Shown here one piece after another: positions 3,251 to 42,735 of a stretch of 64,000 nucleotides of DNA. Origin of the DNA: a virus. The translations under genes were made by a program, and so were the position numbers. Under the pieces are notes generated by a model that saw nothing but the letters and a program-made list of their open reading frames with translations, was not told the origin of the DNA and did not search any database. How positions within the stretch are numbered: the stretch's first letter is position 1; each line of letters starts with the position of its first letter. The DNA is taken from positions 1-64,000 of IMG/VR virus record IMGVR_UViG_3300025828_004167; one strand, given 5' to 3'.

Positions 3251-3566
3251 CACTTGGGTACAGTTGACGAAGGACTTCGTCAAGGAATGGCCGGAGGTTT
3301 TGGAGGGACTACAGTTCCAGAACATGCCGGTCAAGTACCTGATGTATATAAACATAATACTCAAGAATAACATCACCATACATTACGACATAGCCAAAGA
3401 ACTGCGTAAAAAGAAGCAGGCCACGATAGCAAAATTTTTGAAAGAAACTATCGAGGCCAACTACCTCAAGATAAAATCTGTGGACCTAAAATTTGACATA
3501 CCTGCCCTGAAAAGAGACATGGAATCTAGGACTTCATTACTAATGGCCAAGACTTTTAAACGATAG
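3222..3566 (+). CDS. hypothetical phage protein, 114 aa
   Basis: Core motif WPEVLEGL..MPVKYL; converges on the DegT gene with an 11-bp 3' overlap. Confidence 0.7.
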   Translation: MPKRQPPKNSTWVQLTKDFVKEWPEVLEGLQFQNMPVKYLMYINIILKNNITIHYDIAKELRKKKQATIAKFLKETIEANYLKIKSVDLKFDIPALKRDMESRTSLLMAKTFKR

Positions 3567-4629
3567 AATTGAATTTTTTAATCACGTAACCGATCTCGTC
3601 ATCAGTCATCAACGGCCAGCAAGGTAGACTCAAAATTGTGTCCGCGACATGTTCCGTGTTTTCCAAATAATTTTTGCTACTATACACAGGTTGTGCATGA
3701 CAGCCTAAAGGCCACATGACTCCTGTCTGTATGCCGGCATCCTGTAATTTATTTTGAATGGTTAACCTGTCTTTTACTTGTATTGTGTACTGATTGTAGA
3801 CATTCTCACACCAATCTGCTGTCTTTACCATGGTGGTTGTTTTTAATTCTTTGTCGTATACAGAAGCGATGCGTCTCCTGTCCTTGTTGTGTGCATCAAT
3901 TTTAGTGATCATGTGATTCAGCACATTTGCCTGTACGGAATCCAACCTCTCATTCCAACCCAGAATTTCGTGTATATATTTGTCTGTGCGACCGTGATCC
4001 CTGGACATGGATATCCTATCTATATAACTTTGATCGCCAACCACAGCACCACCATCACCAAAGCACCACATGTTCTTGGCAGGATAGAAACTGAAACAGG
4101 TGAGATCATTGTATGTTCCGTTCATTTTGCCTTTGTATTTTCCACCAAAACTCTGAGCGGCATCCTGGACCACTGGAATGTTGCCCGCTATACTTTTGAC
4201 TGTGTCCCAGTCACAGGTGTGTCCAAATATGTCCACTCCAACGATTGCCTTTACATTTTTGTTTGCACTCAATATTTCTGCCAAATGATCCGTGTCAATG
4301 GTGTAGTTTTCCTTGTTGCAGTCGGCCCAAATTATTTCAAGTCCCAACTTACTTGCCATCTCTGGTGTGCTAATGAATGTGAAACTTGGAATGACTACCT
4401 TGTCTCCGGGGTTCAATCCAAGGCATTCATAAGCCAAAAGTAGAGCACTCGTACCACTGCTAACTCCAACGGCGGGAGCACCGCAGTACCTGGCTAGGTT
4501 CTTCTCGAATTCTTCAACCTTTGGTCCTTTGATGAACCAACTATTATCAATGCAGTCTTGCACGGCTTTGTCTAATTCTGCCTTTGACTCTTGATATATC
4601 CTGTTTAAATTTGCGTAGGGGACTTCCAT
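3556..4629 (-). CDS. DegT/DnrJ/EryC1/StrS family PLP-dependent sugar aminotransferase (DesV/FdtB-like)
   Basis: SSGTSAL, PSFTFIST, DAAQSFG, FSFYPAKN (PLP lysine), GDGGAV, GWNERLD and LSLP motifs. Confidence 0.92.
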   Translation of the reverse strand: MEVPYANLNRIYQESKAELDKAVQDCIDNSWFIKGPKVEEFEKNLARYCGAPAVGVSSGTSALLLAYECLGLNPGDKVVIPSFTFISTPEMASKLGLEIIWADCNKENYTIDTDHLAEILSANKNVKAIVGVDIFGHTCDWDTVKSIAGNIPVVQDAAQSFGGKYKGKMNGTYNDLTCFSFYPAKNMWCFGDGGAVVGDQSYIDRISMSRDHGRTDKYIHEILGWNERLDSVQANVLNHMITKIDAHNKDRRRIASVYDKELKTTTMVKTADWCENVYNQYTIQVKDRLTIQNKLQDAGIQTGVMWPLGCHAQPVYSSKNYLENTEHVADTILSLPCWPLMTDDEIGYVIKKFNSIV

Positions 4630-5807
4630 TTATTCTCTAATTCTTGTTTCCAATCTAGGCCTTGTGCTTTATATTGTTTCGCTTCGTGTATTAACAAAGT
4701 GGTTGTGTGATCAAAGGCATCAAGAAAACCCACATCAAAAGGTTGTGCTTTGATCCCGGGTCCTTGCAGATGCTGTCTAACGATGTCAGTGACATTGGAG
4801 TTTTTGATGTTTCCAATGATATACCGATCACTGCCTGGTCTATCAAGGAAACCGGTCTCATGGTAAACATAAAGGTTACCCAAACTGTCTATGGATGTCG
4901 CTATCTGTGGCCACCCATGTCGGTCCATTTGTTCGTGCGTGGACATCTTGATAGGACCTGTTGGGTTGCCGTGTCTTACTGAGTGCAAGGCATAGCCATA
5001 GTCTATATGCACATCCGTGTGTTGTTCCACTTCAAGGAAAATCTTATGTAATTTTTCACGTTCCTCATCTGATATGTAGTTGTTGGATTGGGAGAAATCC
5101 TCCCTCAATGTTACAAATGATATCTTGAAATCAGACACACTGTTAATGTCTTTTATCATTCGGAACACACTTCTCACGTCTTCACTGTGCCCTGGCAGTA
5201 TTATCCAATTCACTCCTAATTTTATCTTGCTTCCTGTTGTTGGAACTTTTCTACAGAAGTCCTTTAGGTTCCTGGTAACGATATCAAATGCTTTTTTATT
5301 CTTTGTTACCCTGTAGTAACTTTCCTGGTCATGGCCATATAGGCTTATGCGCATGACTTCTAGATCCAGAATGCCGTGTTGCTTTTCCAAAAAATTTTCA
5401 GACAGAGCATAGCCATTGGTGTACATCTGCATCTTGAATCCTTTGCTGTTGCCGTAACTAATGATCTTGCCTATGTGTGGATTTGTAAGCGGTTCCAGTC
5501 CACCGCTTATCCTAAATCTATCCTGCCAGAATTTTCCTTCCTTGGGATCTTGGTCGATGACCTGTTTGAATACTTCGAAACTATTATCTATGTCCTCCGA
5601 CTGATATTTCGCATTGTAGTTCCTGCCACAGAAAGTGCAGAAGAACTGACAGGTCATTCCCGGATACAAGCCAATCCTGTTAGGGTAAGCGTATGTTCCC
5701 TCCACTGCGTGTTCCAGTGAACCATTGTTCAATAATGGACTAATTGTATTGTTCCAATATCTGTTTGATTCTATTTGATCTTTTTCGTGTTTGTATCCTA
5801 ACCTCAT
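4605..5807 (-). CDS. DesII-like radical SAM enzyme (TDP-4-amino-4,6-dideoxyglucose ammonia-lyase family)
   Basis: GLYPGMTCQFFCTFC (CxxxCxxC), SGGLEPLTNP, YTNGYAL, RISLYG and LREDF match my recollection of Streptomyces DesII; adjacent to a DegT aminotransferase. Confidence 0.75.
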   Translation of the reverse strand: MRLGYKHEKDQIESNRYWNNTISPLLNNGSLEHAVEGTYAYPNRIGLYPGMTCQFFCTFCGRNYNAKYQSEDIDNSFEVFKQVIDQDPKEGKFWQDRFRISGGLEPLTNPHIGKIISYGNSKGFKMQMYTNGYALSENFLEKQHGILDLEVMRISLYGHDQESYYRVTKNKKAFDIVTRNLKDFCRKVPTTGSKIKLGVNWIILPGHSEDVRSVFRMIKDINSVSDFKISFVTLREDFSQSNNYISDEEREKLHKIFLEVEQHTDVHIDYGYALHSVRHGNPTGPIKMSTHEQMDRHGWPQIATSIDSLGNLYVYHETGFLDRPGSDRYIIGNIKNSNVTDIVRQHLQGPGIKAQPFDVGFLDAFDHTTTLLIHEAKQYKAQGLDWKQELENKWKSPTQI

Positions 5808-5815
5808 ATGATTGT

Positions 5816-7108
5816 TTATCCGTGCCTGTCCTCGAAGTATTTTTTTATCCAGTCGAAATCATAACTGCTATAGGGATCGTTGCCCTGCTCTAGGAACTCT
5901 ACGGCATCCAGCGCACCCTTATTGACCCATTCCGCGTTGTCGCCATTGCCTAACGTTAACCATTTTTTCAACCTATATGTGCTTTCCACAGTTGGCTTCT
6001 GCAACTTCAACTTGATTACTTCCCTGAACGCGGTCCTCCAGGCCAACAACGGGGTCTCGTCGAGGTTATTGACAGCACTCAACGTTGGTACTGACTGCAC
6101 CGGTTGGGATAGTGTGAAATCCAATCCCGGCTTGGTTGTTTCTAACACTAATCTTTTATTGTATAGTATGACTCCGTCATGTCCGTACGTGCAGTCAATT
6201 ACACTGTTGTAACAGTCAAAAATGTAATGGCATGGGTGCTTGAGTCTGTCTGGTTGGAAATCAAACTTGAAATCATCTACTACATCAATTTTTGGAAATA
6301 CGGCGAAGAAGTAGTCGGTCTTGCTCATCATCGCGGCCGTCATGTAGGCCAGTGTCTGCCCTTGGACATTCCTGCACCACTGCGTCCTTGGAAATTTGCT
6401 TTTCAGTCTGTTATACCTTTTCTCAGCGCCTGGTTCGTCATATGATATGAATATTATGTCCATGGGTTTAATAGCGTATTGTAGATCAAAGTTCACGTTC
6501 CTGTCTATGTCATAGAATTGTTTCAACCCCTGCCTGTGTGGCACCATCATGATGTCTTTGGTTTGTCCCCATGTGTAAACCTTTTCATCCTCCCAGAAAC
6601 TAGGATAGAAGTCTGGAAGATCTTGATCTTTTAGATCTTTGTTGATCAACCACTGATAGAAAATTTTATTTTTGTAGTATGATTCATAAGGATCACCTAA
6701 CTTGAAATAGGTTTTAGAAATGGGCCTTTGGAAAAGCGTTTCGTGTGGATGATAATTTATGTCTTTGAAATCTCTGAGAAACTTTAAATCTTTCATCTGT
6801 TCCTTGAATTTTTTTGTGGGTATCAACATGACATTCCCTTCTTTGTTGAGTCCTCCCATGGGATGGGTGGTGTACCATACGTGTATCTGGTCACGCTCGT
6901 GCTGTTCAGGAATGTAATCTAGGTCGATGTCGTCTAGTTTGACGAAATTTGAAAAGAACCAGAAGTATTCTGTCTTGACATCACCAACCACAGACTTGAG
7001 GATGTTGAAGTAACTATCGATGAATGGTACAACACGGGTGTTCGCTAGGGGCGATTCTATGTGAGTTGTGTTTTTAAATTTTACCTGTATACTGTCGAAT
7101 CCAGTCAT
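5816..7108 (-). CDS. glycosyltransferase-like protein (two GT-A-like halves, degenerate DxD)
   Basis: C-terminal DIIFISYDEP...YGHDGV...AWRTAFREVIKL; paralogous to 22068..22970. Confidence 0.55.
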   Translation of the reverse strand: MTGFDSIQVKFKNTTHIESPLANTRVVPFIDSYFNILKSVVGDVKTEYFWFFSNFVKLDDIDLDYIPEQHERDQIHVWYTTHPMGGLNKEGNVMLIPTKKFKEQMKDLKFLRDFKDINYHPHETLFQRPISKTYFKLGDPYESYYKNKIFYQWLINKDLKDQDLPDFYPSFWEDEKVYTWGQTKDIMMVPHRQGLKQFYDIDRNVNFDLQYAIKPMDIIFISYDEPGAEKRYNRLKSKFPRTQWCRNVQGQTLAYMTAAMMSKTDYFFAVFPKIDVVDDFKFDFQPDRLKHPCHYIFDCYNSVIDCTYGHDGVILYNKRLVLETTKPGLDFTLSQPVQSVPTLSAVNNLDETPLLAWRTAFREVIKLKLQKPTVESTYRLKKWLTLGNGDNAEWVNKGALDAVEFLEQGNDPYSSYDFDWIKKYFEDRHG

Positions 7109-8033
7109 AGTAACTTTCTAGTCCTTGCCTTAGAGAGAACAGGGGTTTATAACCTAAAAGATCCCTAGCTCTGCTGATGTCCAGAGTGCCACGCATCGGA
7201 TACAATTTGTGCATGCCTATGTCTTTGAGTTCTGACTTGCTCCCAGTTATGTCTATGATGGTCTCCGCCAGCGTCCGGAGGCTTGTGGCGTTTCCCGCCG
7301 TTATGTTGAAACTAGTGTTGGACACCTCTGAGATTGCGGCCTTGATTATGCCATAAGCGGCATCCTGTCTGTATGTGAAGTCCACCTTGTTGTCGCCATT
7401 GTGTAACGTGATGACATCATTGTTCATGGCCCTCTCGAAGAACTTGGATACCACCCTGTCAGGGAGATCGCCTGGCCCGTACACGCCACTGGGTCTAACT
7501 ATCACGTAGTTTAGACCGTCCCGCTGAGCGAACAGTTTGGTCATTCTCTCACCTGTGAGTTTGGCCTCACCGTATATGTTTTGTGGTCTTGTTATGGAAT
7601 CCTCACGAGTGCCATCCTTGAAGTCTCCGTACACCATGCTACTGCTGATGTACACAAATTTCTTGGCGCCAAACTTTGATGCGTGCCATAGTAGATTAGT
7701 TGTGGTATCTATGACTTTAGGTATGCCCAGTATGGGATCCTCGTCCACTATCTTGGCACGTGGATACGTGGCCATATGTATCACGATGTCTGGCGCTGTC
7801 TTAAATGCCCTCAGGCACACATCGCGATCAAGCAGGTCACCGTTGATCACAGAAACGTTCTTGTGGTCCCAGTGACGGGTTCTCCAGGCTATGAGCTTGT
7901 TCAACTCCACAGGCGATATTATACCGTATGTGTCCTTGTTGTCCACACAGATGATGCTGTGCCCTTCCTGTGATAATTTTTCTATGATCTTAGTCCCTAT
8001 GAATCCCAGTCCGCCAGTTATTAAAAATTTCAT
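7074..8033 (-). CDS. NAD-dependent epimerase/dehydratase (extended SDR)
   Basis: ITGGLGFIG Rossmann motif, ISSSMVYG, YGEAK (YxxxK), VRPSGVYGP, DFTY. Confidence 0.92.
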   Translation of the reverse strand: MKFLITGGLGFIGTKIIEKLSQEGHSIICVDNKDTYGIISPVELNKLIAWRTRHWDHKNVSVINGDLLDRDVCLRAFKTAPDIVIHMATYPRAKIVDEDPILGIPKVIDTTTNLLWHASKFGAKKFVYISSSMVYGDFKDGTREDSITRPQNIYGEAKLTGERMTKLFAQRDGLNYVIVRPSGVYGPGDLPDRVVSKFFERAMNNDVITLHNGDNKVDFTYRQDAAYGIIKAAISEVSNTSFNITAGNATSLRTLAETIIDITGSKSELKDIGMHKLYPMRGTLDISRARDLLGYKPLFSLRQGLESYYDWIRQYTGKI

Positions 8034-8182
8034 TAGAATTCCTTCTTTACACCCACAGTTGGATTTTCAACACAACTGTCAGTTATATCTTTAATTGATT
8101 CTTTATCCATATCTATGCTACAACTGGCCGAGGGTTTAATTCCGCAACCAACTAACAATAATAACACAATTAGGTATCTCAT
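8033..8182 (-). CDS. 49-aa predicted lipoprotein (below the ORF-track cutoff)
   Basis: Hand translation MRYLIVLLLLVGCGIKPSASCSIDMDKESIKDITDSCVENPTVGVKKEF. Lipobox LVG-C; ATGA and TAATG coupling to both neighbours. Confidence 0.7.
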   Translation of the reverse strand: MRYLIVLLLLVGCGIKPSASCSIDMDKESIKDITDSCVENPTVGVKKEF

Positions 8183-9651
8183 CCTAGCACTTTCACTCCG
8201 TACTTGCGGGTGAACGCTCGACCATCCTCACGATCATTCACGATAGGCTGTCCCTTTATGTTGAGGCTGGTGTTTAAGAGTATAGGGCAACCGGTCTGCT
8301 TTTTCCATTCTGTGAGCAGTGCGTGGAATCCGGGATTGTCCGTCTTACGCACGGTTTGAACCCTGGATGTGTGATCATGATGTATTATGGCAGGAAACTC
8401 TTTACCATGCGTACACGCCGCTGTAAATTGCATATAAGGGGTGTTTTTGACGGCTTTAGGTAGCTCAAAATAGTCGTTTACATCCTCTTCTAATATGGCC
8501 GGAGCAAACGGTCTAAACTGCTGTCTCTTCTTGATCGAGTTTACCAAATCCTTGATCTCAGGTCCTCGAGGATCTGCTAACAGTGATCTATTACCAAGCG
8601 CCCTAGGTCCAAATTCCGCCCTGCCGCTCGCAACACCAACCATCTTGTTTTCCTTCAATTCTTTGATCAGACTGTCCACGGGATATTCTCCATCTATGTT
8701 GTGTCCCAGGAACGGATGTTGCCAATTGAGGTGTGACTTCTGGTGTGCGGCTATACACCCTAGGCTTGACCCCGCATCACCAGGATTGGGTATGATCCAG
8801 ATGTTGTCAAACAGTCCCATGTCTGCGAGCACCCGGTTGGCGGCACAGTTCAATGCCACTCCTCCAGCATACACCAGATTACGTGATCCGTATCGGCTGG
8901 CTCTCGTCCATAAATCAGCGAGTAGTTCCTCCGTGACTGCTTGTATACTGGCGGCTATGTCCATGACATCCGCGTTTGTCTCCCAGTCACTCAATCCCCT
9001 GTGTAGATTCTTCTTGAGACTGAAAGGTGATTGATTGACAAATTCATCATAGATTTTCTGCTTGTACTTGGGTGTGCCATACGCGGCCATTCCCATCAGG
9101 ATGTACTCCTCTTCCGCCGGTTTCAATCCACAACGATGTGTGAATGCCGAATAAAGTATTCCTATGCTGTGTGGATACTTGATTGTCTCTTTCCTATCGA
9201 TCCATATCTTGTCTGCTGTGGATATAGACACGGTGTCCCACTCACCAATGGCATCCACTGTAAGTATTGTTGCTCCCTCGTCCTTGAACGGTGATGTGAA
9301 ATACCCCGCCGCCGCGTGTGAGTCATGGTGCTTTACGTACTCGTCAATCTTTATGTCAAAGTGATCCAAGTGCCACTGTGGCATCTCGGTATAGCTCATG
9401 GCAAGTCCATACTGTCCCGCGTAGAACTGCCTGGTCTTTTTCAACAATGGCTTCTCGTAGTACACCACCTTGTCGAAAGGTCCAAAGGTACGTGCCTCGT
9501 CCACTATCTTTTGGTTGAGGTAGTGGTCATTCTTGACCTTGCTGTATCTCTCCGCGTGTGCGGCCCACAGGATCTCTCCTATGCCTGAACTATAGTCAAC
9601 CACTGCCATGGCGGCATCATGATTCATGCAGTTAATTCCCAGTATTCTCAT
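8179..9651 (-). CDS. NodU/CmcH/TobZ family carbamoyltransferase
   Basis: HDAAM, HHDSHAA, DAIGE, MGMAAYG, GGVALNC, EFGPRALGNRS, FRPFAP and LNTSLN motifs. Confidence 0.95.
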   Translation of the reverse strand: MRILGINCMNHDAAMAVVDYSSGIGEILWAAHAERYSKVKNDHYLNQKIVDEARTFGPFDKVVYYEKPLLKKTRQFYAGQYGLAMSYTEMPQWHLDHFDIKIDEYVKHHDSHAAAGYFTSPFKDEGATILTVDAIGEWDTVSISTADKIWIDRKETIKYPHSIGILYSAFTHRCGLKPAEEEYILMGMAAYGTPKYKQKIYDEFVNQSPFSLKKNLHRGLSDWETNADVMDIAASIQAVTEELLADLWTRASRYGSRNLVYAGGVALNCAANRVLADMGLFDNIWIIPNPGDAGSSLGCIAAHQKSHLNWQHPFLGHNIDGEYPVDSLIKELKENKMVGVASGRAEFGPRALGNRSLLADPRGPEIKDLVNSIKKRQQFRPFAPAILEEDVNDYFELPKAVKNTPYMQFTAACTHGKEFPAIIHHDHTSRVQTVRKTDNPGFHALLTEWKKQTGCPILLNTSLNIKGQPIVNDREDGRAFTRKYGVKVLG

Positions 9652-9799
9652 CTTCCTCCTTGTGCCAACCTATGTCCTCTATGTTGTCACTGCTACACTT
9701 CGGACAGACGTACCATTCGTTTGCCGAATCGTCTTTGTCTAGTTCGTTAGCCACGCCCTTCCATTTACAATCGTAACAAAGAAAATTCCACCAGGTCAT
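9632..9799 (-). CDS. small zinc-ribbon protein
   Basis: CYDC...CPKC. Likely start is MTWWNF at 9799 (ATGA overlap) rather than 9844. Confidence 0.65.
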   Translation of the reverse strand: MTWWNFLCYDCKWKGVANELDKDDSANEWYVCPKCSSDNIEDIGWHKEEDENTGN

Positions 9800-10359
9800 G
9801 CTATCCTCAAAACCTTTTTGGTTTTCTCCAAATATTTCTCCCACTGCTCCAGCGTGATGTCGTACTCGAAGTTCTGTGTGGTCTCGTTCTTTCTCAAAAG
9901 TTTGGCGCCATTCTTGATGTGGAACCGTTCCGCCATCTCCGTCAAGGGACTCAGCGTCACCAACCTGTCTATGTGATGTTCCCTCTTGAATTTCTTATAT
10001 ACTTCGTTGAGTATGTGTTTGCCACCACCCTTCTTTTTAGCCCATACTGTGTAGGCTATCGCTATCCTGCCCACCAGGCCGCCACGCAGTATGCTCTGGT
10101 TGTAGGCGTCATGTGACATCAACGCCATCTCCTCTACAGTGGCTGGCACATCATTAGTGAACGCTATACATATGATCGCGGCAGTGTCTCCCTCATCGTC
10201 TCGTAGTCCTAGTATGCGTTTGCCATTGCTCTTGCGGAACTCCACGCTCAGTTCTGGCCTCACTGGATCCTCCGTGACATCTATTTCTGTGAGATCCACC
10301 AATTCAAATCGCGGATTTCTTTTGAACAGATCTTTTAACTTCTGTTTTATCTTTTCCAT
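9796..10359 (-). CDS. hypothetical protein, possible GNAT-like fold
   Basis: DPVRP, AIAYTVWA-KKGGG, LVTLSP and FHIKNGA resemble the acyl-CoA-binding elements of GNAT/malonyl-CoA decarboxylase-like proteins. Confidence 0.55.
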   Translation of the reverse strand: MEKIKQKLKDLFKRNPRFELVDLTEIDVTEDPVRPELSVEFRKSNGKRILGLRDDEGDTAAIICIAFTNDVPATVEEMALMSHDAYNQSILRGGLVGRIAIAYTVWAKKKGGGKHILNEVYKKFKREHHIDRLVTLSPLTEMAERFHIKNGAKLLRKNETTQNFEYDITLEQWEKYLEKTKKVLRIA

Positions 10360-35201: not shown

Positions 35202-35766
35202 TGTTCCAGAATTCCTTTTTCTTTTTACCATGCACCAGAAGATGCACACGTTCTTGATCTGAATTGTTCTCAACATAGTGCTCGTAGTGTATGTTTAAAA
35301 CCAACGGCATTCCGGGCACATAATCTACCTGTTTATTGTTTAAAACGAATCTGTTACCTTCGGGATAACTCAGACAGATGTTTAAAGGTTCTAACCAGTT
35401 GCGTTCTGGCACATCTATGTGCTTTGTGATATAACCGTTTGGTTTGATCACAAGGAATCTTATGTCATCTATCCTAGCGTATGGCAAACTCTTTACCCAC
35501 TCTATTGTGCGTGGACAACGTTCGCCAACATCAGTTACACCTGGCTTTTGTTTTTTGCGATCATACTCCCAATGGCTGTTTGTCTTGTCTGAAGCGAATC
35601 CATAAAGGGTCACGGCACACCAATCCTTGTGTCCGTCCTCTGGCCTGTGTATGACTAGCCTATCCTTGATCAGTTCGTATTCCGTCAAAATTTGTTTGAC
35701 CGGGACATCGAAGTCCATCTGCACGTATTCCACACTGCTGTTTCTATCAAATTTTTGAGTGTTCAT
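35182..35766 (-). CDS. aspartyl/asparaginyl beta-hydroxylase family oxygenase
   Basis: RFLVIKPNGYITKHID, LNICL, HYVENNSDQERVHL; paralog of 29564..30217. Likely start near 35766. Confidence 0.75.
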   Translation of the reverse strand: MNTQKFDRNSSVEYVQMDFDVPVKQILTEYELIKDRLVIHRPEDGHKDWCAVTLYGFASDKTNSHWEYDRKKQKPGVTDVGERCPRTIEWVKSLPYARIDDIRFLVIKPNGYITKHIDVPERNWLEPLNICLSYPEGNRFVLNNKQVDYVPGMPLVLNIHYEHYVENNSDQERVHLLVHGKKKKEFWNNVHAWR

Positions 35767-36310
35767 GATGATCCTTGTGGTTCCCTTCAAATGGTGCAAC
35801 CAAATTGATGAGGAATCTGTTTGCAGGACCCTTGGCATCATGTCCGTAAAAATTCAGTATACCAAAACCTACATATGAAAGAATGTATAACATTAGGTTA
35901 ATTATAACTGCATTTACGCCAAAAAGCAATGTTGTTATTATCCAGTGTGCGGCGAAAATAAGTTTGCCGTACCTGTGGAAAAACATCACTCTTGGATTTT
36001 TTATTAGATCGTCAATATATTTTCTTGGTATTTGTTTTACCTTCCATAAACTGAAGAGAATCACATGCCAAGGATGATTCCTAGGACTGTGTGGGTCCTT
36101 GTCTGTGTCTGCATAAGCGTGGTGTATCCTATGAACACCTGCCCAGGTCAATGCACTCCTACCACCGCATAACAATCCAAGATATAGAAGTACGATTTCT
36201 GCCAATGGACTGGCTTTGTAATCACTGTGTGAGAAGTATCTGTGGTATCCGTAGGTTATTCCAACTGCGGCCACAAGCCAATAAATCATGTATCCATATA
36301 ATAATATCAT
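35747..36310 (-). CDS. membrane fatty acid desaturase (delta-9/OLE1-like), compact
   Basis: Three His boxes HRYFSH, HRIHH and HKDHH, plus DPHSP and hydrophobic segments. Confidence 0.85.
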   Translation of the reverse strand: MILLYGYMIYWLVAAVGITYGYHRYFSHSDYKASPLAEIVLLYLGLLCGGRSALTWAGVHRIHHAYADTDKDPHSPRNHPWHVILFSLWKVKQIPRKYIDDLIKNPRVMFFHRYGKLIFAAHWIITTLLFGVNAVIINLMLYILSYVGFGILNFYGHDAKGPANRFLINLVAPFEGNHKDHHEHSKI

Positions 36311-36315
36311 GCTAG

Positions 36316-36323
36316 ATATTTAA
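36316..36323 (-). promoter_or_regulatory. T4-late-like promoter TTAAATAT
   Basis: Minus strand TTAAATAT-ctagc-ATG(36310). Confidence 0.45.
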
Positions 36324-36343
36324 CCGTCATTTCCTTCATGCTT

Positions 36344-36754
36344 TTACGATCCTACAAATCCTTTATTATTATTTGTTGTAATCATAGGTTGACCTGGTAC
36401 ATCATAATGGTACTGTTCCATTTCAGACCAATTTCTTAAATCTTCACCTTCTTCAACACCACATTTTTCTCTACAAGGACGAGGTGCATTATTAGGATCA
36501 TCAAACATAATATCCCAAAATGCTTTCCATTCTTTAGAGTGAGTAATTTCTTTAATATCTTTTACCTTATCAAGATGTAAATGTTCACTATATAATGCTT
36601 CGTGTTCTTTTGTTAATGGTTTTTTAGATTGAAATGCTTTGCTATCGCACCAACAACAAGGTAACAAAAATCCTAAAGCACTATGACCCATAGTAACTCT
36701 ATCCCCCACAACACATTTAGGTACTATCTTATCTATTTTCTTTTGTTTGGACAT
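36344..36754 (-). CDS. stand-alone twitch/SPASM-like Fe-S protein
   Basis: VPKC...PCCWCD...PCREKC, homologous to the C-terminus of 18488..19495; AT-rich. Likely start is MSKQKK at 36754. Confidence 0.6.
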   Translation of the reverse strand: MSKQKKIDKIVPKCVVGDRVTMGHSALGFLLPCCWCDSKAFQSKKPLTKEHEALYSEHLHLDKVKDIKEITHSKEWKAFWDIMFDDPNNAPRPCREKCGVEEGEDLRNWSEMEQYHYDVPGQPMITTNNNKGFVGS

Positions 36755-37391
36755 AATTCTCTTTATTTTTAGGCACACCTGCTTCCATATAATGAAACCT
36801 AGATGACTTTTTAAGTAACAATTTAATTTTTTTATCTTTACAAAATTTTTTTGCGTCTTCTATTTGACGTTCATTAAAAGAAAATATTATAAATTGCCAC
36901 GCTACATTAAAACCTAATTCTTTTAATTTTATCATAGTATCAAATAAAAATTCTGAGTCTTGGTTATGACGGTATATATGACTAACATCTGGAAAACCAT
37001 CTAGTCCTATTTTCCAATATATTCTTTCAGGATATATTTCACTTATTTTTTTATACCAATCAAACTTTTTATTTTTAACGGTTGCGGCTGTGTGTATTGA
37101 TAGATAATTTATTTTATGTTCTTTGGCAATTTCTATAAATTTTGCTAGATTAGGATTAAAAATAGGATCAGATATTTGACCACATAAACATAAATGTTTA
37201 AAATGTTTACATAGTTTTGTCCATTGAGAGATTGAAGTATCGTAACCAGGTATAGGTTTACCTGCAAATCTATTCGTTTGCCTAGAACAAGCAATACATT
37301 CTAAAGTACACTTATTACTAATATCTAAATTTACGCTAGGTCTACTAATAAATCTATTATATAATTGTTTATAATTTTGTGAATGACTCAT
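36729..37391 (-). CDS. radical SAM protein (core only)
   Basis: LDISNKCTLECIAC, CGQISDP, GLDG, WQFIIFSFNE; AT-rich. Likely start is MSHSQN at 37391. Confidence 0.8.
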   Translation of the reverse strand: MSHSQNYKQLYNRFISRPSVNLDISNKCTLECIACSRQTNRFAGKPIPGYDTSISQWTKLCKHFKHLCLCGQISDPIFNPNLAKFIEIAKEHKINYLSIHTAATVKNKKFDWYKKISEIYPERIYWKIGLDGFPDVSHIYRHNQDSEFLFDTMIKLKELGFNVAWQFIIFSFNERQIEDAKKFCKDKKIKLLLKKSSRFHYMEAGVPKNKENYVQTKENR

Positions 37392-38085
37392 AATCTTCCC
37401 AGTCATGTGGTTTATTTGTGGCATGGGTAAAGTGCACCATTTTGATGTCTGGATGAAATTCACCACCCAAATAAACGTAGTCGTTGCCCGTGACCTTGTG
37501 GTACAACTGACTGGTCTTGACCTTCCATTTATTTAAATCAAAATTTTTCACACCAATATCCTCTTTGGCGCACCATCTAGCGACCCAACTGTCAGGCACC
37601 GTGATCAATTCCAGTTCCTCATTGACGTTGTCTTCAACGAAGTACTGCTCCCCATTCACCGGTCCCTTTGCTATGCCCCTCTTGATGTAGTAGCTCTGCC
37701 AGAAGTCTGGGTCTGACATGAACTTGTCATAGATATACCTGCAGTCCTTGGGATAGTACTTGAAGAACCCTCCATTTATCTTGTAGCGTTTCTTTTCTGT
37801 GTCTCTCCACCATCCCGGTATCGAAACAAACTGACCTTTCTTTATGGGATACTCAAAAAGTTCTTTATAGTTGTTGACCAAAAGCACGTCAATGTCCATT
37901 ACAACTATGGGTTCGTCAATGTCTAAAGACATACCATACATTTTATTCCATTGCAGTAATACACCTTCTTTTATTGGCTTTCGTATCCATATAAATTCAT
38001 ACTCCGGCAATTTTTCTTCCAAGTATTTCTCGTACTCTGGACCGTACCTGTCACCTATGCGCACTGCTACAATTTTCATCGCCAT
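37369..38085 (-). CDS. glycosyltransferase-like protein (GT-A)
   Basis: GDRYGPEY, WNKM, VMDIDV (DxD), INGGF, GEQYF, VHFT. Confidence 0.65.
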   Translation of the reverse strand: MAMKIVAVRIGDRYGPEYEKYLEEKLPEYEFIWIRKPIKEGVLLQWNKMYGMSLDIDEPIVVMDIDVLLVNNYKELFEYPIKKGQFVSIPGWWRDTEKKRYKINGGFFKYYPKDCRYIYDKFMSDPDFWQSYYIKRGIAKGPVNGEQYFVEDNVNEELELITVPDSWVARWCAKEDIGVKNFDLNKWKVKTSQLYHKVTGNDYVYLGGEFHPDIKMVHFTHATNKPHDWEDYESFTKL

Positions 38086-38801
38086 TTTATGACCTCATCT
38101 AATGTTGGCTTCGCCACCCAGCTCTTGTGATTGAATCTGTCATAGTCTCCATAGCCTATGCCCATGACGAACGCCAAACCAGATCTCAGTGTGATGTCAT
38201 TGTGTATCGCAGGCTCATAGAAATAACATTTACAGAAAGAAACATCTAATCCCTGTTCCACAGCCAACATCGTTGTGACCATCGCGTTCATGCCCGCCTG
38301 CTGATTGAATTGATCCTTATGGATTTTTTCAACCTTGTCAAAAATTTGTTGTAGTTTTCCGCTTTCCCAGTACTTGCCCTGTTTCTGAGATTTCCTCATT
38401 TTCTGTGTGGCCGGATAGTACGCCAGGAGATATGGAGCCGTGACCTGGTTGTTGAAGTGCCAACTGTCGTCCTTGATGTACTGCTTGGTCTTGTCTCCGT
38501 AATGATAGGCCAACCAGTCATCATATCTCGTTTCCAACTCCTTGGCCATCTCCAGTGTCATGTTGCTCCATCTATTGTGATCATTCTTGTGTTTTCCACA
38601 CACTGTGCTCATGGCCAATTTCTTCTTCTGCGCAGAATGTTCAGGACCATACACATCTATCTCGTAGTGCCAAAAATTGTTCTTGTGTGGTGTCAGCTCT
38701 TTTGCTTTTTCCAGTATTTGCTGTATCAAGGCAACATCGGGTATCCTGTCCTGTTTGAAGAAAGAAATGTTCCTCCTCTTTTTCAGCAGATCTTCTATCA
38801 T
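38076..38801 (-). CDS. nitroreductase-like (FMN-binding) protein
   Basis: LLKKRRNISFF, TPHKNN, TAPYLL, LAVEQGLDVSF, MGIGY. Confidence 0.65.
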   Translation of the reverse strand: MIEDLLKKRRNISFFKQDRIPDVALIQQILEKAKELTPHKNNFWHYEIDVYGPEHSAQKKKLAMSTVCGKHKNDHNRWSNMTLEMAKELETRYDDWLAYHYGDKTKQYIKDDSWHFNNQVTAPYLLAYYPATQKMRKSQKQGKYWESGKLQQIFDKVEKIHKDQFNQQAGMNAMVTTMLAVEQGLDVSFCKCYFYEPAIHNDITLRSGLAFVMGIGYGDYDRFNHKSWVAKPTLDEVIKWR

Positions 38802-39454
38802 ATCTTCGTTCCTATTATCATGAATCTTTTGTATTTGCCGAAATCTTTCTCATAGAACTTGATGTTCCTCAATTTCGACACGTACTGATTCGCGAAATCC
38901 TCCACCGTGTCCACACAATTGATGTGTTGTGTTATTTCCCTGTAGTTGTTGCTCTGCAACACGACCAATGTGTGTTCCTCTAATTTACTTATAGTGTCGT
39001 AGATCATGGATTGATCAAGATGTTCACAGGATGTACATATAACAATGGAATTTTCAAACTTATCTATTTCTTTGATATCCTTTTCAACAAATTTAATGTA
39101 TGTTAGGTAACCATTTTTCAAATTATCAGCATCAACTTTCTGCCATAGTTTTTTAGCCACAGTTTTGGCTTGTGGATCAAAATCTACACAATCTATGTGA
39201 CCTATCTTTTTCAGTGTCAATTTTTTTACCAACATGTGTGCCAACAGTCCATACCAACTGCCTAAAATAGAAACACTGATATTTTTATCCAACGTCTTGC
39301 ATTTGAAATGGTGAGGATATTCATTTAATTTTTCAATCAGCCAGTCTTTACTAGCATACTGATTTGTGCTGAGACTATCAATGACGTCAATTATTCTGTC
39401 TGGACATTTCTCTAACAGTCTCTTTACCGTGTCTAGTGTGTCCCTATCAAACAT
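38798..39454 (-). CDS. class I SAM-dependent methyltransferase-like protein
   Basis: SKDWL, ILGSWYG, VDFD, CTSCEH, LQSNN, RFMIIG. Confidence 0.6.
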   Translation of the reverse strand: MFDRDTLDTVKRLLEKCPDRIIDVIDSLSTNQYASKDWLIEKLNEYPHHFKCKTLDKNISVSILGSWYGLLAHMLVKKLTLKKIGHIDCVDFDPQAKTVAKKLWQKVDADNLKNGYLTYIKFVEKDIKEIDKFENSIVICTSCEHLDQSMIYDTISKLEEHTLVVLQSNNYREITQHINCVDTVEDFANQYVSKLRNIKFYEKDFGKYKRFMIIGTKI

Positions 39455-40025
39455 ATTTTTGATTGTGCAACAGTATTGTGTTGTGTTCCACTCCCTCCTG
39501 CCAGCTGGATATCTGATCTCCTATGAAATAGTTGTATTTGACGTCTTCGTTGTAGATGTATCTGTCTATACCAGAGTACAATCTCACATATAGATCTCTG
39601 TGTTTCATGAACTTTTCAAACACGTGCCGTTGATCGCTCCAACGCATTATCGAAGAGTTCACCAGCGTGTTCTGTGTCACACGGAATTTCAAGGGCGTCT
39701 TCAAAGATTCCTGTTTCCATGCACTGCTGTTGACCAAGGTCAACCCTTCGAAATCACTCGCTAAGAAATCAATGTTATCATTTATGGCTATGTCTAAATC
39801 AAAGAACAAGCACTGTCCCGTGAACTGTAGTAGGGATAACTTATGGAACACACCACGCAGTTCGGGGTGCGTGACTGGAATATCATACTCCTTCTCTGGT
39901 CTATCTGTGAGACATCTAAATGTGTGATCTAATGTGAGATGTTCTGCGACAGAGTTTTTTAACTTTTTATCAAAGTCTCTGGTGTATTTCGTTCCGACGT
40001 TAACACAGTATACATCAATCATCAA
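39447..40025 (-). CDS. glycosyltransferase-like protein (GT-A)
   Basis: CVNVGTKY, CLTD, LFFDLDI (DxD), NSSIMRW, GIDRY; paralog of 37369..38085. Confidence 0.65.
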   Translation of the reverse strand: MMIDVYCVNVGTKYTRDFDKKLKNSVAEHLTLDHTFRCLTDRPEKEYDIPVTHPELRGVFHKLSLLQFTGQCLFFDLDIAINDNIDFLASDFEGLTLVNSSAWKQESLKTPLKFRVTQNTLVNSSIMRWSDQRHVFEKFMKHRDLYVRLYSGIDRYIYNEDVKYNYFIGDQISSWQEGVEHNTILLHNQKYV

Positions 40026-40485
40026 AGTTATTGTAGGCCACCAACAGCTCGAGCGGTGTCTTTGCTGATCTTAGTTGAGATTTCTTTTCCTTGTCGGTAG
40101 ACCCCTTCACTTTTTCTGTTTCAAATATTTCCACCTTGGTGGTGAACAACATTTCCTTACACTGTGCGTCGTTTGGATCAAAGTTCAGTATGCACTTGAC
40201 GAAGTCCTCCACAGATACACGTTGTTTGATATCTGTTTTTGACTTTATGCCAGCGTCCACTATGTCGCTCAGTTGCTGTGCGTATCTCCTGTTCCGGGCG
40301 ATCGTGGCCTCCGCTATCTTGTCCGTGCTGTATTCCGACACGAGGTCCTTGAAGTCTTGGTTGTTGTAATCAACCGGGAGATAATGATTTATCGCCCGCT
40401 TGCCGTCCTCATAGATCACCTCGACTGTGTTGTTTTCTGAATTTGCGAAATACGCCTCTATTATTTTTCCACTGAATATTGCCAT
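40015..40485 (-). CDS. hypothetical protein, 156 aa
   Basis: AAGGA SD and its own promoter; first gene of the enzyme run. Confidence 0.7.
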   Translation of the reverse strand: MAIFSGKIIEAYFANSENNTVEVIYEDGKRAINHYLPVDYNNQDFKDLVSEYSTDKIAEATIARNRRYAQQLSDIVDAGIKSKTDIKQRVSVEDFVKCILNFDPNDAQCKEMLFTTKVEIFETEKVKGSTDKEKKSQLRSAKTPLELLVAYNNFDD

Positions 40486-41470: not shown

Positions 41471-41480
41471 ATGATTAGTT

Positions 41481-41509
41481 ATTATAAAACATTCCTAGGA
41501 ACATTTCAA
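41481..41509 (-). promoter_or_regulatory. sigma70-type promoter with a palindromic spacer
   Basis: Minus strand TTGAAA(41509-41504)-N17-TATAAT(41486-41481); the spacer contains TTCCTAGGAA (41492-41501). Confidence 0.65.
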
Positions 41510-41517
41510 CCATAAAA

Positions 41518-42735
41518 TTACGCTCCTGCGCCGTATATGGTCTTTAGTACCGTTCCCGTACTGCTCAGGATTTGTAATGATGTGCTTGATGCGAACATGG
41601 TCGATGTCACTGTGCCAGTGTCTCCAGTCGTTACCACTGTACCTGTGACGTTTGGTATGGTAATGGTCCTGTCCGCAGTTGGGTTGGCCACTGTGATCGT
41701 GGTTTCGAAAGCGTCATCTGATGATCCTTCGAAGATGATTGTACCACTGGTTGTGAGTTGTATGCCCGACGTTGTTACAGCACCTGTTAATGGTCCTGTG
41801 AAAGCGGTCGCGTTCACAGTGCCCGCCACATCCAGTTTGGTACTAGGAGTTACTGTGCCTATACCTACCCTAGACTCGGCTCCATCGATGGTCATCACCG
41901 TAGTGCTGGTTCCACCATCATTGACCTTGAACGTGATGTCTGTGTTCTGTGCCGTGTTTGACAATATCACACCGTTGCTGTCAACTGTGATAGAAAGGTC
42001 ATTGTCAGCACCCACGGTAATACCTGAGTCATTGACAATACCCAGTGTGCCTGTTGTGGTGTCGTTGGCGTCTGATCTGAGGAACGATGCCGCCGCTATG
42101 CCGCCAAGTTTATCTGCGTCTGTGGCAGTACCGTTTAATTTGATTCCTGAAGGTGAAGTTGTGAATGTTATTCCCTTGTACACAGTTGGGAAACCTGTTA
42201 TCGCTGTCTGTGGCGTAAACTCCGTGTCCGAAACTATGGCTATCAGCGTGCCATCACTGTACCATTTGGTTATGGGTTGACTAGCTGTGGTGGAATCTGT
42301 GACTGCTTCATACACGAAACCATTTAACGAACCTGTTGAAGTTGGTGGACCGACCAGCACACTCTGAGATCCGTCATAGTAGAACAGTTGTCCTACATCT
42401 GAATCTATCCAGAGGTCTCCCTGTTGTATACCACTTGGTTGTGTGGATTGGTAGGGAATGTTACCCCCGGCAGGAACGAAAAGGTTCCCTGTGTAGACTT
42501 TCAATCTGTCAACGTCACTGTCATACCAGAGTTGCCCTTGTACTGGTTTGGTCGGTGCCGAATCGTTGGCAAAATTTTCCAGTAGATGGAGGAAATTCTC
42601 CGCTATCAGCTCTCCATAACCCGCATAACCCTTACCAATGAAACTGAGATCCGTCTGTGTGTTGACCACACCGTCCTGTACTATGTACTGGTTAGGTGAA
42701 GCGGCGCTGTTTGTCTTGTTTACTGTGTAAGCCAT
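41518..42735 (-). CDS. tail fibre/baseplate protein
   Basis: GKGYAGYGE..ENF, QGQLWYD/QGDLWID, RVGIGT..P..KLDV, PTADRTITIP; paralog of 26110..27750. Confidence 0.75.
   Translation of the reverse strand: MAYTVNKTNSAASPNQYIVQDGVVNTQTDLSFIGKGYAGYGELIAENFLHLLENFANDSAPTKPVQGQLWYDSDVDRLKVYTGNLFVPAGGNIPYQSTQPSGIQQGDLWIDSDVGQLFYYDGSQSVLVGPPTSTGSLNGFVYEAVTDSTTASQPITKWYSDGTLIAIVSDTEFTPQTAITGFPTVYKGITFTTSPSGIKLNGTATDADKLGGIAAASFLRSDANDTTTGTLGIVNDSGITVGADNDLSITVDSNGVILSNTAQNTDITFKVNDGGTSTTVMTIDGAESRVGIGTVTPSTKLDVAGTVNATAFTGPLTGAVTTSGIQLTTSGTIIFEGSSDDAFETTITVANPTADRTITIPNVTGTVVTTGDTGTVTSTMFASSTSLQILSSTGTVLKTIYGAGA

Follow-up and report, generated by a model that had tools for sequence, protein, structure and literature searches.

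What does a block of enzymes some 39 kb long do directly behind the tail-fibre genes of an uncultured giant aquatic phage? We have analysed a window of 64,000 nt (the whole stretch of DNA considered here) from a Rak2/Atu_ph07-like jumbo myovirus that carries a fibre-linked operon of soluble enzymes; the contig covers ~21% of the phage genome. A first-pass annotation had proposed a single 34-kb pathway that makes unusual sugars and modifies the tail proteins, or the host surface, with them. The enzymes most likely do assemble and modify an unusual sugar coat, probably on the phage's own fibres, and the block is better described as a conserved core with variable cassettes.

The features of the locus are collected in Table 1, and genes are named below by their lower coordinate. 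The segment 3556-42735 holds 49 genes (46 ORFs that reach 100 aa and 3 small ones), of which 48 lie on the minus strand, as do the structural genes. The tight packing first described holds up (neighbouring genes overlap at 38 of 48 junctions and are 0-15 nt apart at 5 others, and 0.994 of the sequence is coding), as does the siting among and right behind fibre and baseplate genes. The gene families are intact, and a Pfam scan at E<=0.01 matched 19 of the 46 ORFs and left 27 without a match. The word TATAAATA of T4 late promoters is not enriched (one occurrence, 1.5 expected), so that late timing of the operon is suggested by position only. Contigs from four RNA libraries match parts of the enzyme and fibre genes with no mismatches, which places the sequences in such libraries and does not prove transcription.

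Table 1. Coordinates of the enzyme, fibre and structural genes; fractions are numbers of related loci with the gene.
Feature	Coordinates	Strand	Evidence and occurrence
DegT/PseC-like sugar aminotransferase	3556..4629	-	PF01041, 296.6 bits
DesII-like radical SAM (NDP-4-amino-4,6-dideoxyhexose deaminase type)	4605..5807	-	TIGR04426, 317.1 bits
430-aa protein, C-terminal half paralogous to GT-A 22068	5816..7108	-	blastp 5.7e-12; 47/58
Extended SDR, NDP-sugar dehydratase/epimerase type	7074..8033	-	PF01370, 145 bits
49-aa ORF, lipoprotein-like signal	8033..8182	-	lipobox LVGC; 11/58
NodU/CmcH/TobZ-type carbamoyltransferase	8179..9651	-	PF16861, 186.5 bits; PF02543, 148.2 bits
55-aa zinc-ribbon-like ORF	9632..9799	-	CxxC...CxxC; overlaps carbamoyltransferase start; 7/58
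187-aa protein	9796..10359	-	GNAT-like by motif only; 35/58
34-aa basic peptide ending KKKDPFIYK	10363..10467	-	translation
SGNH-like protein	10451..11272	-	motif GCSF; paralog of 19972; 52/58
Four tandem N-terminal-twitch radical SAM paralogs	11265..16347 (11265-12431, 12413-13732, 13719-15002, 14992-16347)	-	NF033640, 366.5, 317.5, 415.4, 286.7 bits; 56-58/58
Cassette II (four genes below)	16340..19988	mixed	Pfam, NCBIfam
HxD protein	16340
B12-binding radical SAM	17009-18487	+
Radical SAM/SPASM	18488-19519
Protein without assigned family	19479-19988
Second SGNH-like protein	19972..20715	-	blastp match to 10451; 28/58, coverage >0.5
Fifth N-twitch radical SAM, deep-core type	20708..22078	-	NF033640, 320.8 bits; 58/58
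GT-A-fold glycosyltransferase-like protein	22068..22970	-	invariant D65-G-D67; model pLDDT 85.9; 57/58
104-aa conserved protein	22949..23263	-	49/58
Two paralogous GT8/GT6-like GT-A proteins	23247..24786 (23247-24041, 24034-24786)	-	fold, hhalign; 55/58 and 54/58
110-aa conserved protein beside fibre genes	24783..25115	-	53/58; RsoM2USA homolog
S/T-rich fibre-like protein	25149-26105	-	S+T 24.8%; 53/58
Fibre protein	26110-27750	-	S+T 18.7%; 52/58
Cassette I, 20 genes	27761..40485	-	Pfam; GC 0.346-0.44
Split radical SAM (36729-37466) and SPASM-like piece (36344-36778)	36344..37466	-	PF04055, 30.1 bits
S/T-rich fibre-like protein	40538-41470	-
Second fibre gene	41518-42735	-	N-terminus 41.6% identical to 26110; 76/80
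Core baseplate/structural protein, S/T-rich C-terminal tail	42739..43464	-	at least 596 IMG/VR relatives
Giant 4212-aa structural protein, 1160-aa wedge protein, gp25-like protein, gp5-like hub	43474..62494	-	Pfam FG-GAP, CBM_5_12, GPW_gp25, Phage_base_V

Comparison with relatives did not bear out a single pathway. Instead, at least 50 of 58 metagenomic relatives have a core of ~21 kb behind the fibre genes, and low-GC cassettes come and go (16340-19988, 27761-40485, 36344-37466 and 4605-5807). The core comprises fibre genes, GT-A genes, five NF033640 paralogs, SGNH-like genes, the carbamoyltransferase, the SDR and the aminotransferase, in the recurring order fibre, 25149, 24783, two GT8, 22949, GT-A, radical SAM and, further on, carbamoyltransferase, SDR, 5816, DegT. 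Core genes each occur in 43-58 of the 58 loci, except 9796, 19972 and the DegT gene; the last is a window-specific allele whose counterpart in 33 loci is only 24-38% identical. In the cultured Ralstonia phage RsoM2USA the genes for the wedge and giant proteins are followed by a mini module. It contains an SDR, a fibre gene, a 24783-like gene, two GT8-like genes, a GT-A protein (41% identical to 22068), an N-twitch radical SAM (ORF349, 34% identical to 20708) and a second GT-A; among 50,697 phage records, RsoM2USA alone has homologues of the GT-A and N-twitch proteins. Loss of linkage to structural genes in related genomes would have counted against the decoration proposal; the enzymes stay linked to fibre genes in at least those 50 relatives and in one cultured phage.

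On the structural side, the 42739 product is 52-56% identical to its Atu_ph07 and Phosso counterparts, 26110 resembles Atu_ph07 gp176 at both its N- and its C-terminus, and 43474..62494 is syntenic with Atu_ph07. The RsoM2USA counterpart of 42739, ORF356, has been confirmed in the virion by mass spectrometry (PMC8504454). The S/T-richness noted earlier for the tail proteins is real: S and T together make up 22-27% of the fibre-type proteins, where the median is 11%.

Pfam confirmed the carbamoyltransferase, the DegT aminotransferase, the SDR and the FA_desaturase. At the level of NCBIfam, the best match of the aminotransferase was PseC (193.6 bits, short of the 423.5 cut-off), with DesI at 128.6; the SDR, which carries GxxGxxG and YxxxK motifs, matched dTDP-glucose 4,6-dehydratase (98.7 bits) and GalE (92.7), both under cut-off. 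The carbamoyltransferase, conserved in 47 of 58 loci at a median identity of 83%, scored 150.7 bits against the NodU model and did not reach its cut-off of 1000. The assignment of two SGNH-like proteins depends on the GCSF motif and paralogy, Pfam giving no match for 10451. Protein 9796, whose motif we take to be that of a GNAT enzyme, had no Pfam match and a faint one to the MCD C-terminal domain (E 0.14). No sugar nucleotidyltransferase was found.

No Pfam glycosyltransferase model matched any of the GT-like proteins, even at E<=10. Of the roughly six first listed, fold and profile evidence points to four GT-A glycosyltransferases (22068, 23247, 24034 and the C-terminal half of 5816), 37369 in cassette I is a lead (Atlas score 0.95 to nucleotide-diphospho-sugar transferase clusters), and 39447 was not confirmed. 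The top Foldseek matches of the 22068 model, SunS, TarS and PBCV-1 A64R, are weak (E 6e-4 to 1e-2, TM ~0.3). Protein 5816, which has no match in Pfam, aligns with 22068 over residues 213-400 (hhalign 99.2%). The GT8/GT6-like model (pLDDT 85.5) has glycogenin as its top match (E 3e-7) and at least 500 matches at E<=1e-3; hhalign relates 23247 to 24034 at 97%. Their small neighbour 22949 gave no match in family searches.

All nine proposed radical SAM proteins were confirmed by profile. Six pass the PF04055 cut-off, the other three pass NF033640 (287-415 bits against a cut-off of 170), and CX3CX2C is kept in all nine. The four tandem paralogs also have four invariant N-terminal Cys, and 20708 has a median identity of 80% among its relatives. 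Our literature search found no paper with an assayed reaction for any NF033640 member. The DesII-like 4605, with CX3CX2C at residue 53, scores below the equivalog cut-off of 450 and belongs to a variable cassette, occurring in 1 of 58 loci. Sugar-nucleotide chemistry stands for part of the block, namely DegT, the DesII-like radical SAM, the SDR, the carbamoyltransferase and the GT-A folds.

The cassettes 16340-19988, 27761-40485 and 4605-5807 could be independent cargo of a hypervariable fibre region, outside the core pathway, which we think unlikely though a serious contender. Few relatives have them (0-7 of 80 and 0-3 of 58), against more than 50 for the core, and their GC is lower (0.35-0.41). 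Cassette II genes are found in 0-3 of 58 loci (GC 0.368 at 18-20 kb), and cassette I in four close relatives (L137-L140) and in 0-5 of 80 other loci. Nested within the latter, the insertion 36344-37466 (GC 0.346; blastp match to 18488) is missing from the closest relatives L137 and L139. Cassette I has a mixed content: three Asp/Asn-hydroxylase-family proteins, TauD, two MTases, a desaturase, a PP-loop-motif protein, the split radical SAM, GT-like leads and proteins without assigned family. About nine 2OG-Fe(II) oxygenases had been counted; four stand (Asp_Arg_Hydrox 29564, 33845 and 35182, and TauD 33025), and 16340, 27761, 28626, 29089 and 32535 have an HxD motif only. Likewise, MTases 30202 and 30863 were recognised by Pfam and 38798 was not, PP-loop 31564 has SGGSDS at residue 71 with a Pfam E of only 0.24, and 38076 was not confirmed as nitroreductase-like. 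Hypervariable clusters of pelagimyophages gather mixed genes too (PMC7029224). Against cargo, the cassettes are translationally packed within the same operon, cassette I includes the GT-like lead 37369 and shares its 38798-type gene with the RsoM2USA mini module, and the DesII-like gene is paired with an aminotransferase in a manner resembling DesI/DesII.

Remodelling of the host envelope is a distinctly unlikely reading. Odd NDP-sugars and soluble transferases would feed the host LPS or capsule machinery, and host lipids would be hydroxylated or desaturated; if so, superinfection would be blocked or the surface of the dying cell altered. The Asp_Arg_Hydrox proteins, of the family that includes LpxO, and the membrane FA_desaturase of cassette I could act on lipids rather than glycans, and ORF 8033-8182 is lipoprotein-like. 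The same idea has been put forward to explain cassettes with GT8 and radical SAM genes in the host recognition cluster of pelagimyophages (PMC7029224). However, flippase, polymerase and ligase are absent; the Pfam scan and membrane-helix survey found no Wzx, Wzy or priming transferase in the contig, and helices were predicted in only 1 of its 66 proteins, the desaturase-like one. Even in relatives as distant as RsoM2USA the genes also keep their place in the structural operon, directly after the fibre genes, which would be unusual for exclusion functions, although it is not proof.

Quite improbable is a RiPP-like system in which the conserved 34-residue peptide, or a different one, would be the substrate of the radical SAMs, the carbamoyltransferase and the GTs. 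Peptide maturation is the best-known role of twitch/SPASM radical SAMs. The peptide is present in 51 of 52 loci covering the SGNH gene, always in the order SGNH, peptide, (GNAT), carbamoyltransferase, and its last 17 residues do not vary although many of their codons differ synonymously, indicating purifying selection. Glycocin S-glycosyltransferases are the top, weak fold matches of 22068. A predicted carbamoyltransferase-peptide complex adds slight support, with a median score of 0.33 against 0.00 for the best of three controls (partner pLDDT >=60, 91% or more of contacts shared between runs). When the tool was calibrated, 58 of 80 solved complexes and 2 of 110 mismatches attained the mark; at scores <=0.60 only 7 of the 80 did so, along with both mismatches. 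However, among 80 IMG/VR loci with KKKDPFIYK, in all of which a stop codon comes next, 7 contain no operon gene; their peptide ORF is found in the interval from portal to scaffold/capsid genes, behind a primase gene, next to RNR or ahead of an Mtd_N fibre gene. Its presence in unrelated phage modules weakens the RiPP reading. In addition, the RsoM2USA mini module has GTs and a radical SAM and lacks the peptide, Pfam and NCBIfam scans found an RRE/PqqD domain on none of the enzymes, and the invariant part contains no Cys, Ser or Thr.

Phages glycosylate and hypermodify DNA with aminotransferases, radical SAM enzymes and GTs, and with the contig being so small a part of the genome, hallmark genes could lie elsewhere. 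That these sugars and tailoring groups go onto phage DNA bases is nevertheless very improbable. As first reported, nucleotide-modification families are lacking: a Pfam scan of 56 proteins from the window and the contig gave none. A complete 328-kb relative bearing the operon (direct terminal repeats, CheckV 100%) has ThyX and no match to PF00303 (ThyA/hydroxymethylase) or PF01702 (TGT/DpdA). Neither family was matched in four partial relatives (29-55% complete), and the operon sits in the structural module, not among replication genes. Slimmest is the chance that the phage makes and releases a free small molecule, for instance one like an aminoglycoside or a nucleoside: the DesI/DesII-like pair, the TobZ/NodU-type carbamoyltransferase, the B12 radical SAM and the 2OG oxygenases resemble antibiotic sugar tailoring, and similar cyanophage genes are labelled antibiotic-synthesis genes in PMC12801897, but Pfam and membrane-helix scans found no scaffold-forming enzyme (cyclitol synthase, NRPS, PKS) or exporter, and strict fibre-gene linkage is left unexplained.

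We favour a glycan that is made and modified in the host cytoplasm, with transfer to the S/T-rich fibre proteins as candidate acceptor, and rate this full scheme at slightly under an even chance. Host NDP-hexoses would be converted by the SDR and the DegT aminotransferase, joined in this phage by the DesII-like radical SAM, and the GNAT-like protein may add an N-acyl group. At least four GT-A enzymes would then pass the sugars to a cytoplasmic acceptor, most likely the fibre-type proteins encoded immediately upstream. The glycan could be edited by O-carbamoylation, SGNH-type (de)acylation and the five N-terminal-twitch radical SAMs, which are putative editing enzymes. In this phage the cassettes may contribute methylation, Fe/2OG hydroxylation and more radical SAM chemistry; since such cassettes come and go, the decoration would be diversified among these phages.

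The block at 3556-42735 forms one densely packed operon whose products probably build and edit a glycan. It holds 46 ORFs of at least 100 aa and three small ORFs; 38 of the 48 junctions overlap, 48 of the 49 ORFs lie on the minus strand, and the coding fraction is 99.4%. The tight packing described in the first-pass annotation is thus correct. Pfam matches were found for 19 of the 46 larger ORFs. All nine of the predicted radical SAM proteins hold, six scoring over the Pfam cut-off and the other three over that of NF033640, and the CX3CX2C motif is kept in each of them. The aminotransferase, the SDR and the carbamoyltransferase were borne out as members of the DegT, extended SDR and NodU/TobZ-type families, and the desaturase as an FA_desaturase fragment with three helices.

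Other family assignments stood in part. About nine 2OG oxygenases had been proposed; four (three of the Asp/Asn-hydroxylase family and one TauD) are confirmed by a curated family match together with the HxD/E...H triad, and the further five candidates carry the HxD motif only. Among about six GT-like proteins, there is GT-A support for 22068, 23247, 24034 and the C-terminal half of 5816 (window genes are named by start coordinate), while 37369 is an Atlas lead only. Two of the three MTases are SAM methyltransferases and the third candidate is unconfirmed, as is the nitroreductase-like protein, 38076, for which a single-sequence PDB search gave nothing significant. For the SGNH pair and the PP-loop protein, support goes as far as the motifs (GCSF and SGGSDS). 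Alignment to anchors by hhalign paired even known oxygenases at only 2-8%, and among the cassette genes, whose alignments are shallow, it paired only 29564 with 35182 (98.4%). The method is therefore too insensitive here, and the extra oxygenase, GT and MTase candidates are neither confirmed nor excluded by it. PDB profile searches with three alignments and single-sequence searches of 38076, 31564, 27761 and 37369 gave no significant match (best E values 0.0087-0.37), and a PHROGs search of 10 unannotated proteins matched only families without a function.

Coordinates of features in and beside the block (window positions except where the contig is named)
Feature	Coordinates	Strand	Remarks
DUF2201 metallopeptidase/VWA-like protein	371-1612	+	opposite strand, just outside the block
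Aminotransferase and DesII-like radical SAM pair	3556-5807	-	adjacent, overlapping genes
49-aa ORF	8033-8182	-	lipoprotein-type signal (lipobox LVGC); between carbamoyltransferase and SDR genes; in 11/58 relatives
Carbamoyltransferase	8179-9651	-	
55-aa ORF	9632-9799	-	CxxC...CxxC, zinc-ribbon-like; overlaps carbamoyltransferase gene start; in 7/58 relatives
34-aa peptide	10363-10467	-	conserved ORF
B12-binding radical SAM	17009-18487	+	only plus-strand gene of the block; in a low-GC cassette
Small core structural protein (42739)	42739-43464		
Giant structural protein, 4212 aa	43474-56112	-	FG-GAP repeats and CBM_5_12 modules
gp5-like hub, gp25-like protein, 1160-aa wedge protein, 4212-aa giant protein, 42739	right part of window		
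~100-aa ORF	64723-65024 (contig)	-	occupies what looks like a gap of 302 bp before the 742-aa baseplate gene (upstream side)

The sugar-nucleotide part of the operon is its best-grounded part. The nearest models are dTDP-glucose 4,6-dehydratase and GalE for the SDR and PseC and LegC for the DegT aminotransferase, in each case below the equivalog cut-offs (DesI, 128.6 bits against 650). The best NCBIfam match of the DesII-like radical SAM 4605 is TIGR04426, at 317.1 bits against an equivalog cut-off of 450. The adjacency and overlap of these two genes resemble the DesI/DesII pair of desosamine synthesis (TIGR04427/TIGR04426), but both are below the cut-offs, the aminotransferase is nearer to PseC/LegC, and 4605, and with it the pair, occurs in one of 58 relatives. 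The carbamoyltransferase has both Pfam domains of the NodU/CmcH/TobZ O-carbamoyltransferases, although its first 103 residues fall off the N-domain profile and its score is 150.7 bits against a NodU cut-off of 1000. The product of 9796 is GNAT-like by motif only.

Evidence for the glycosyltransferases comes from structure prediction. No Pfam GT family matched 5816, 22068, 23247 or 24034 at E<=10, and a PDB sequence-profile search of the GT candidates gave no match. AlphaFold models of 22068 and 23247 (pLDDT 85.9 and 85.5) both have GT-A folds. The 23247 model matches glycogenin/GT6 strongly (E 3e-7, at least 500 matches), and that of 22068 matches SunS, TarS and PBCV-1 A64R weakly (E 6e-4 to 1e-2). 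By hhalign, 24034 is a paralog of 23247 (97%) and the C-terminal half of 5816 a paralog of 22068 (99.2%). Acidic motifs are present as an invariant D65-G-D67 in 22068 and D94-I-D96 in 24034; 23247 has E89-x-D91, which is not DxD.

The window covers the first 64 kb of a linear viral contig 72.8 kb long. CheckV puts the contig at 21% completeness, which implies a genome near 350 kb. The nearest cultured phages, judged by protein identity of the hub (30-37%) and of 42739 (47-56%), are jumbo myoviruses of the Rak2/Atu_ph07/PA5oct type, and the contig and Atu_ph07 agree in gene order (gp25, wedge, giant protein, 42739, fibre). The giant protein is syntenic with a 4449-aa virion protein of Atu_ph07 and with the 2541-aa ORF361 of Ralstonia phage RsoM2USA. 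No relatives at the DNA level were found among 50,697 GenBank phage records: megablast of 24 kb gave no match, and distant blastn of the baseplate region gave a single match of 122 bp. Matches in IMG/VR are plentiful: one radical SAM is found at 58 loci (73-93% identity), the hub at 78 and 42739 at no fewer than 596; the same radical SAM matched 6620 protein clusters at E<=1e-10 among 8000 candidates scored.

Contigs from four freshwater-labelled metatranscriptome libraries match pieces of 9000-28999 with 0 mismatches, in enzyme and fibre genes alike (for example 9656-10159, 16420-16735, 20868-21137, 23407-23681, 25097-25836 and 26319-27738). Such RNA libraries may contain DNA, and the contigs attest presence only, not transcription, timing or level. 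Some bins of the 20-kb stretch are uncovered in some runs (18338-19004 in all four), but gaps between contigs do not mean silence, and contig depth cannot rank genes. A shared late promoter is unsupported, the T4 late-promoter word TATAAATA occurring once (upstream of 56112) against 1.53 expected. A protein 93% identical to a window protein stems from a marine survey source; with the freshwater-labelled contigs, this suggests that the lineage spans salinities.

All window proteins were compared by tblastn with the fetched loci, which extend only 10 kb to each side and in some cases stop at contig ends. A common order recurs behind the fibre genes: the 26110 fibre, the S/T-rich fibre-like 25149, 24783, 24034, 23247, 22949, 22068 and the radical SAM 20708; then the SGNH-like 19972, the radical SAMs 14992, 13719, 12413 and 11265, the SGNH-like 10451, the 34-aa peptide and 9796; and finally the carbamoyltransferase 8179, the SDR 7074, 5816 and the aminotransferase. 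Most of these core genes are present in 43-58 of the 58 loci. Other parts are rare. Cassette II (16340-19988) is found in 0-3 of 58 loci, and cassette I, a 20-gene stretch at 27761-40485, is present in four close relatives only, its genes turning up in 0-5 of 80 further loci. Nested inside it, the piece at 36344-37466 is absent even from the closest relatives (L137 and L139). The rare pieces have a GC content of 0.35-0.41 against 0.42-0.51, and cassette I is flanked by two fibre genes with N-termini 41.6% identical. The block thus consists of a conserved core and variable cassettes. The B12-binding radical SAM of cassette II resembles PhpK/RiPP C-methyltransferase with scores well below the cut-offs, and a 33-bp AT-rich spacer separates it from 16340, which it faces.

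Five of the radical SAM proteins (11265, 12413, 13719, 14992 and 20708) belong to the N-twitch family NF033640 (N_Twi_rSAM), scoring 286.7-415.4 bits against a cut-off of 170 and covering model positions 1-398. They share with the family the full model and an N-terminal Cys cluster ahead of the core (invariant C33, C52, C93 and C96, then C146/C150/C153, with CX3CX2C in all five), and differ from it in occurring as five paralogs within one phage operon. These are old paralogs; their mutual identity is 21-29%, and ortholog medians are 48-80%. The Atlas clusters nearest to them are 93-100% viral. Our literature search found no assayed reaction for NF033640, nor any paper on its enzymology, on this operon or on the peptide motif. 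In a complete 328-kb relative with terminal repeats (G005, the record of L182) 11 matches exceed the NF033640 cut-off; five of them belong to the fibre-linked operon, and the other six are scattered round the genome. The cultured 255-kb Vibrio phage K566 (L231) has five N-twitch-type radical SAM genes among hypotheticals at 161.5-179 kb, a region in which the window GT genes have no match. Atu_ph07 (L232) carries three radical SAM genes of another type (gp165-gp172) about 3.5 kb behind a fibre gene, in the position equivalent to the operon; these gave no match to N-twitch HMMs at E<=1e-3.

The sole match for 20708 and 22068 among the 50,697 phage records is RsoM2USA, where the genes for the wedge and giant proteins are followed by a syntenic mini module, ORF346-358 (MG752970). 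It encodes an SDR, a fibre protein, a protein similar to 24783, two GT8-like proteins and a GT-A (41%), as well as an N-twitch radical SAM (34% identical to 20708), another GT-A and a protein similar to 38798. The module has one radical SAM, against five in the window, and is without the carbamoyltransferase, the SGNH protein, the peptide and the oxygenase cassette. A fibre, GT-A enzymes and one N-twitch radical SAM thus make up the deepest conserved unit. All genes of the module are annotated as hypothetical and the radical SAM goes unmentioned in the accessible part of PMC8504454, according to which mass spectrometry identified ORF356 and ORF361 as proteins of the virion.

We class the operon, which centres on radical SAM chemistry, among the virus-encoded systems for glycan decoration. 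Few systems of virus-encoded virion glycosylation are known, each with a handful of transferases. Freeman et al. are said to have described it for mycobacteriophages in 2023, and chlorovirus PBCV-1 has a virion glycosylation system (A64R). These resemble the window in having virus-encoded GT-A enzymes beside structural genes, and A64R is among the fold matches of 22068; they differ in their small number of GTs and are not known to include tailoring by radical SAM enzymes, carbamoylation or oxygenases. The closest description in print, going by the available text of Zaragoza-Solas et al. 2020 (PMC7029224), is the hypervariable host recognition cluster of pelagimyophages and cyanomyophages, which lies downstream of a giant structural protein and combines radical SAM cassettes with genes for tail fibres, GT8-type transferases and LPS-type sugars. 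The region type and the gene mix are shared with the window. These phages are, however, T4-like and of ~150 kb, whereas the window contig has a jumbo-type hub and baseplate and a ~21-kb core conserved in order.

In a hydropathy scan of 66 contig proteins, membrane helices were found only in the desaturase-like 35747 (the giant protein has one borderline hydrophobic segment, unconvincing as a helix). Pfam and hydropathy revealed no flippase, polymerase, ligase or priming transferase of Und-P-dependent assembly among the block proteins. With one membrane protein and no assembly genes, the product must either be assembled in the cytoplasm, with a soluble acceptor, or draw on the machinery of the host. 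The enzyme genes share strand and operon with the fibre genes, and the fibre-type proteins are the most S/T-rich of the contig (26.5, 25.7, 24.8 and 22.4%, against a median of 11.4%). The sugar genes, the lack of membrane assembly, the fibre linkage and the S/T-rich fibres together are our grounds for regarding glycan synthesis and editing as likely; the full reading, with the fibre proteins as its acceptor, stands a little short of an even chance.

The enzymes could instead remodel the host surface, which we consider unlikely. The cassette I hydroxylases are of the Asp_Arg_Hydrox family, which includes LpxO, and such a role would suit these together with the desaturase and lipoprotein-like genes, but export and assembly genes are absent. 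A similar role was proposed for the pelagimyophage cluster, where modification of the host O-chain is put forward without a test in the accessible part of PMC7029224.

The 34-aa peptide, which ends in KKKDPFIYK, raises the alternative of a dedicated RiPP precursor matured by the operon. Of the 52 loci that span the adjacent SGNH gene, 51 have the peptide, always in the order SGNH, peptide, (9796), carbamoyltransferase. Its C-terminal 17 residues are invariant and encoded by many synonymous codons, which marks it as a genuine gene. When it was paired with the carbamoyltransferase in complex prediction, the median score was 0.33 (best of three controls, 0.00), the partner pLDDT was 60 or more and the runs had at least 91% of their contacts in common; passes at such low scores are more often wrong than right unless the complex is likely beforehand, and the prediction lends weak support to a possible carbamoyltransferase-peptide complex. 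A degenerate-pattern (IUPAC) scan found KKKDPFIYK-stop in 97 IMG/VR stretches, and the stop follows the motif in all 80 that were fetched. Seven of the 80 are without any operon gene (L237, L243, L247, L265, L266, L271 and L278). There the peptide is 27-74 aa long, and in two versions its N-terminal part is rich in Cys/His. It follows a Toprim primase, precedes an Mtd_N fibre gene, adjoins an RNR small chain or stands between the portal and scaffold/capsid genes. The mini-gene ending in KKKDPFIYK-stop is widespread among phages, and its occurrence in unrelated modules argues against a dedicated RiPP precursor. An RRE/PqqD-like domain is also absent from all 46 proteins (Pfam, NCBIfam), and we regard peptide maturation as improbable. 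A Tyr-glycosylated peptide, considered on account of the glycogenin top fold match and two invariant Tyr residues, was dropped as a main reading because the peptide is found in unrelated modules.

Hypermodification of the DNA is more improbable still: the complete 328-kb operon-bearing relative has ThyX only and no ThyA-like or TGT/DpdA-like gene, and PF00303 and PF01702 are absent from all five relatives searched, that genome included, the window's own genome being ~21% present. A free metabolite is the least probable product, since scaffold enzyme and exporter are absent.

Returning to a glycan on the fibres, it is possible, though more speculative than the acceptor assignment, that abundant jumbo phages of aquatic habitats cover their own tail fibres with a glycan which is rewritten by the five N-twitch radical SAMs and then diversified by swappable oxygenase, methylase and radical SAM cassettes. 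If so, a carbohydrate radical chemistry new to enzymology would tune the surface by which the virion recognises its host. The operon gives NF033640 a defined genetic context, with candidate sugar-nucleotide inputs, GT partners and candidate acceptors, and its cassette structure offers a view of the natural diversification of such pathways. This highly abundant phage lineage devotes 20-40 kb to soluble enzymes of sugar and radical chemistry that are linked to its fibres; should the product reside on the fibres, it would represent a new layer of host-range control, and at least five new radical SAM reactions would have carbohydrates as their substrates.
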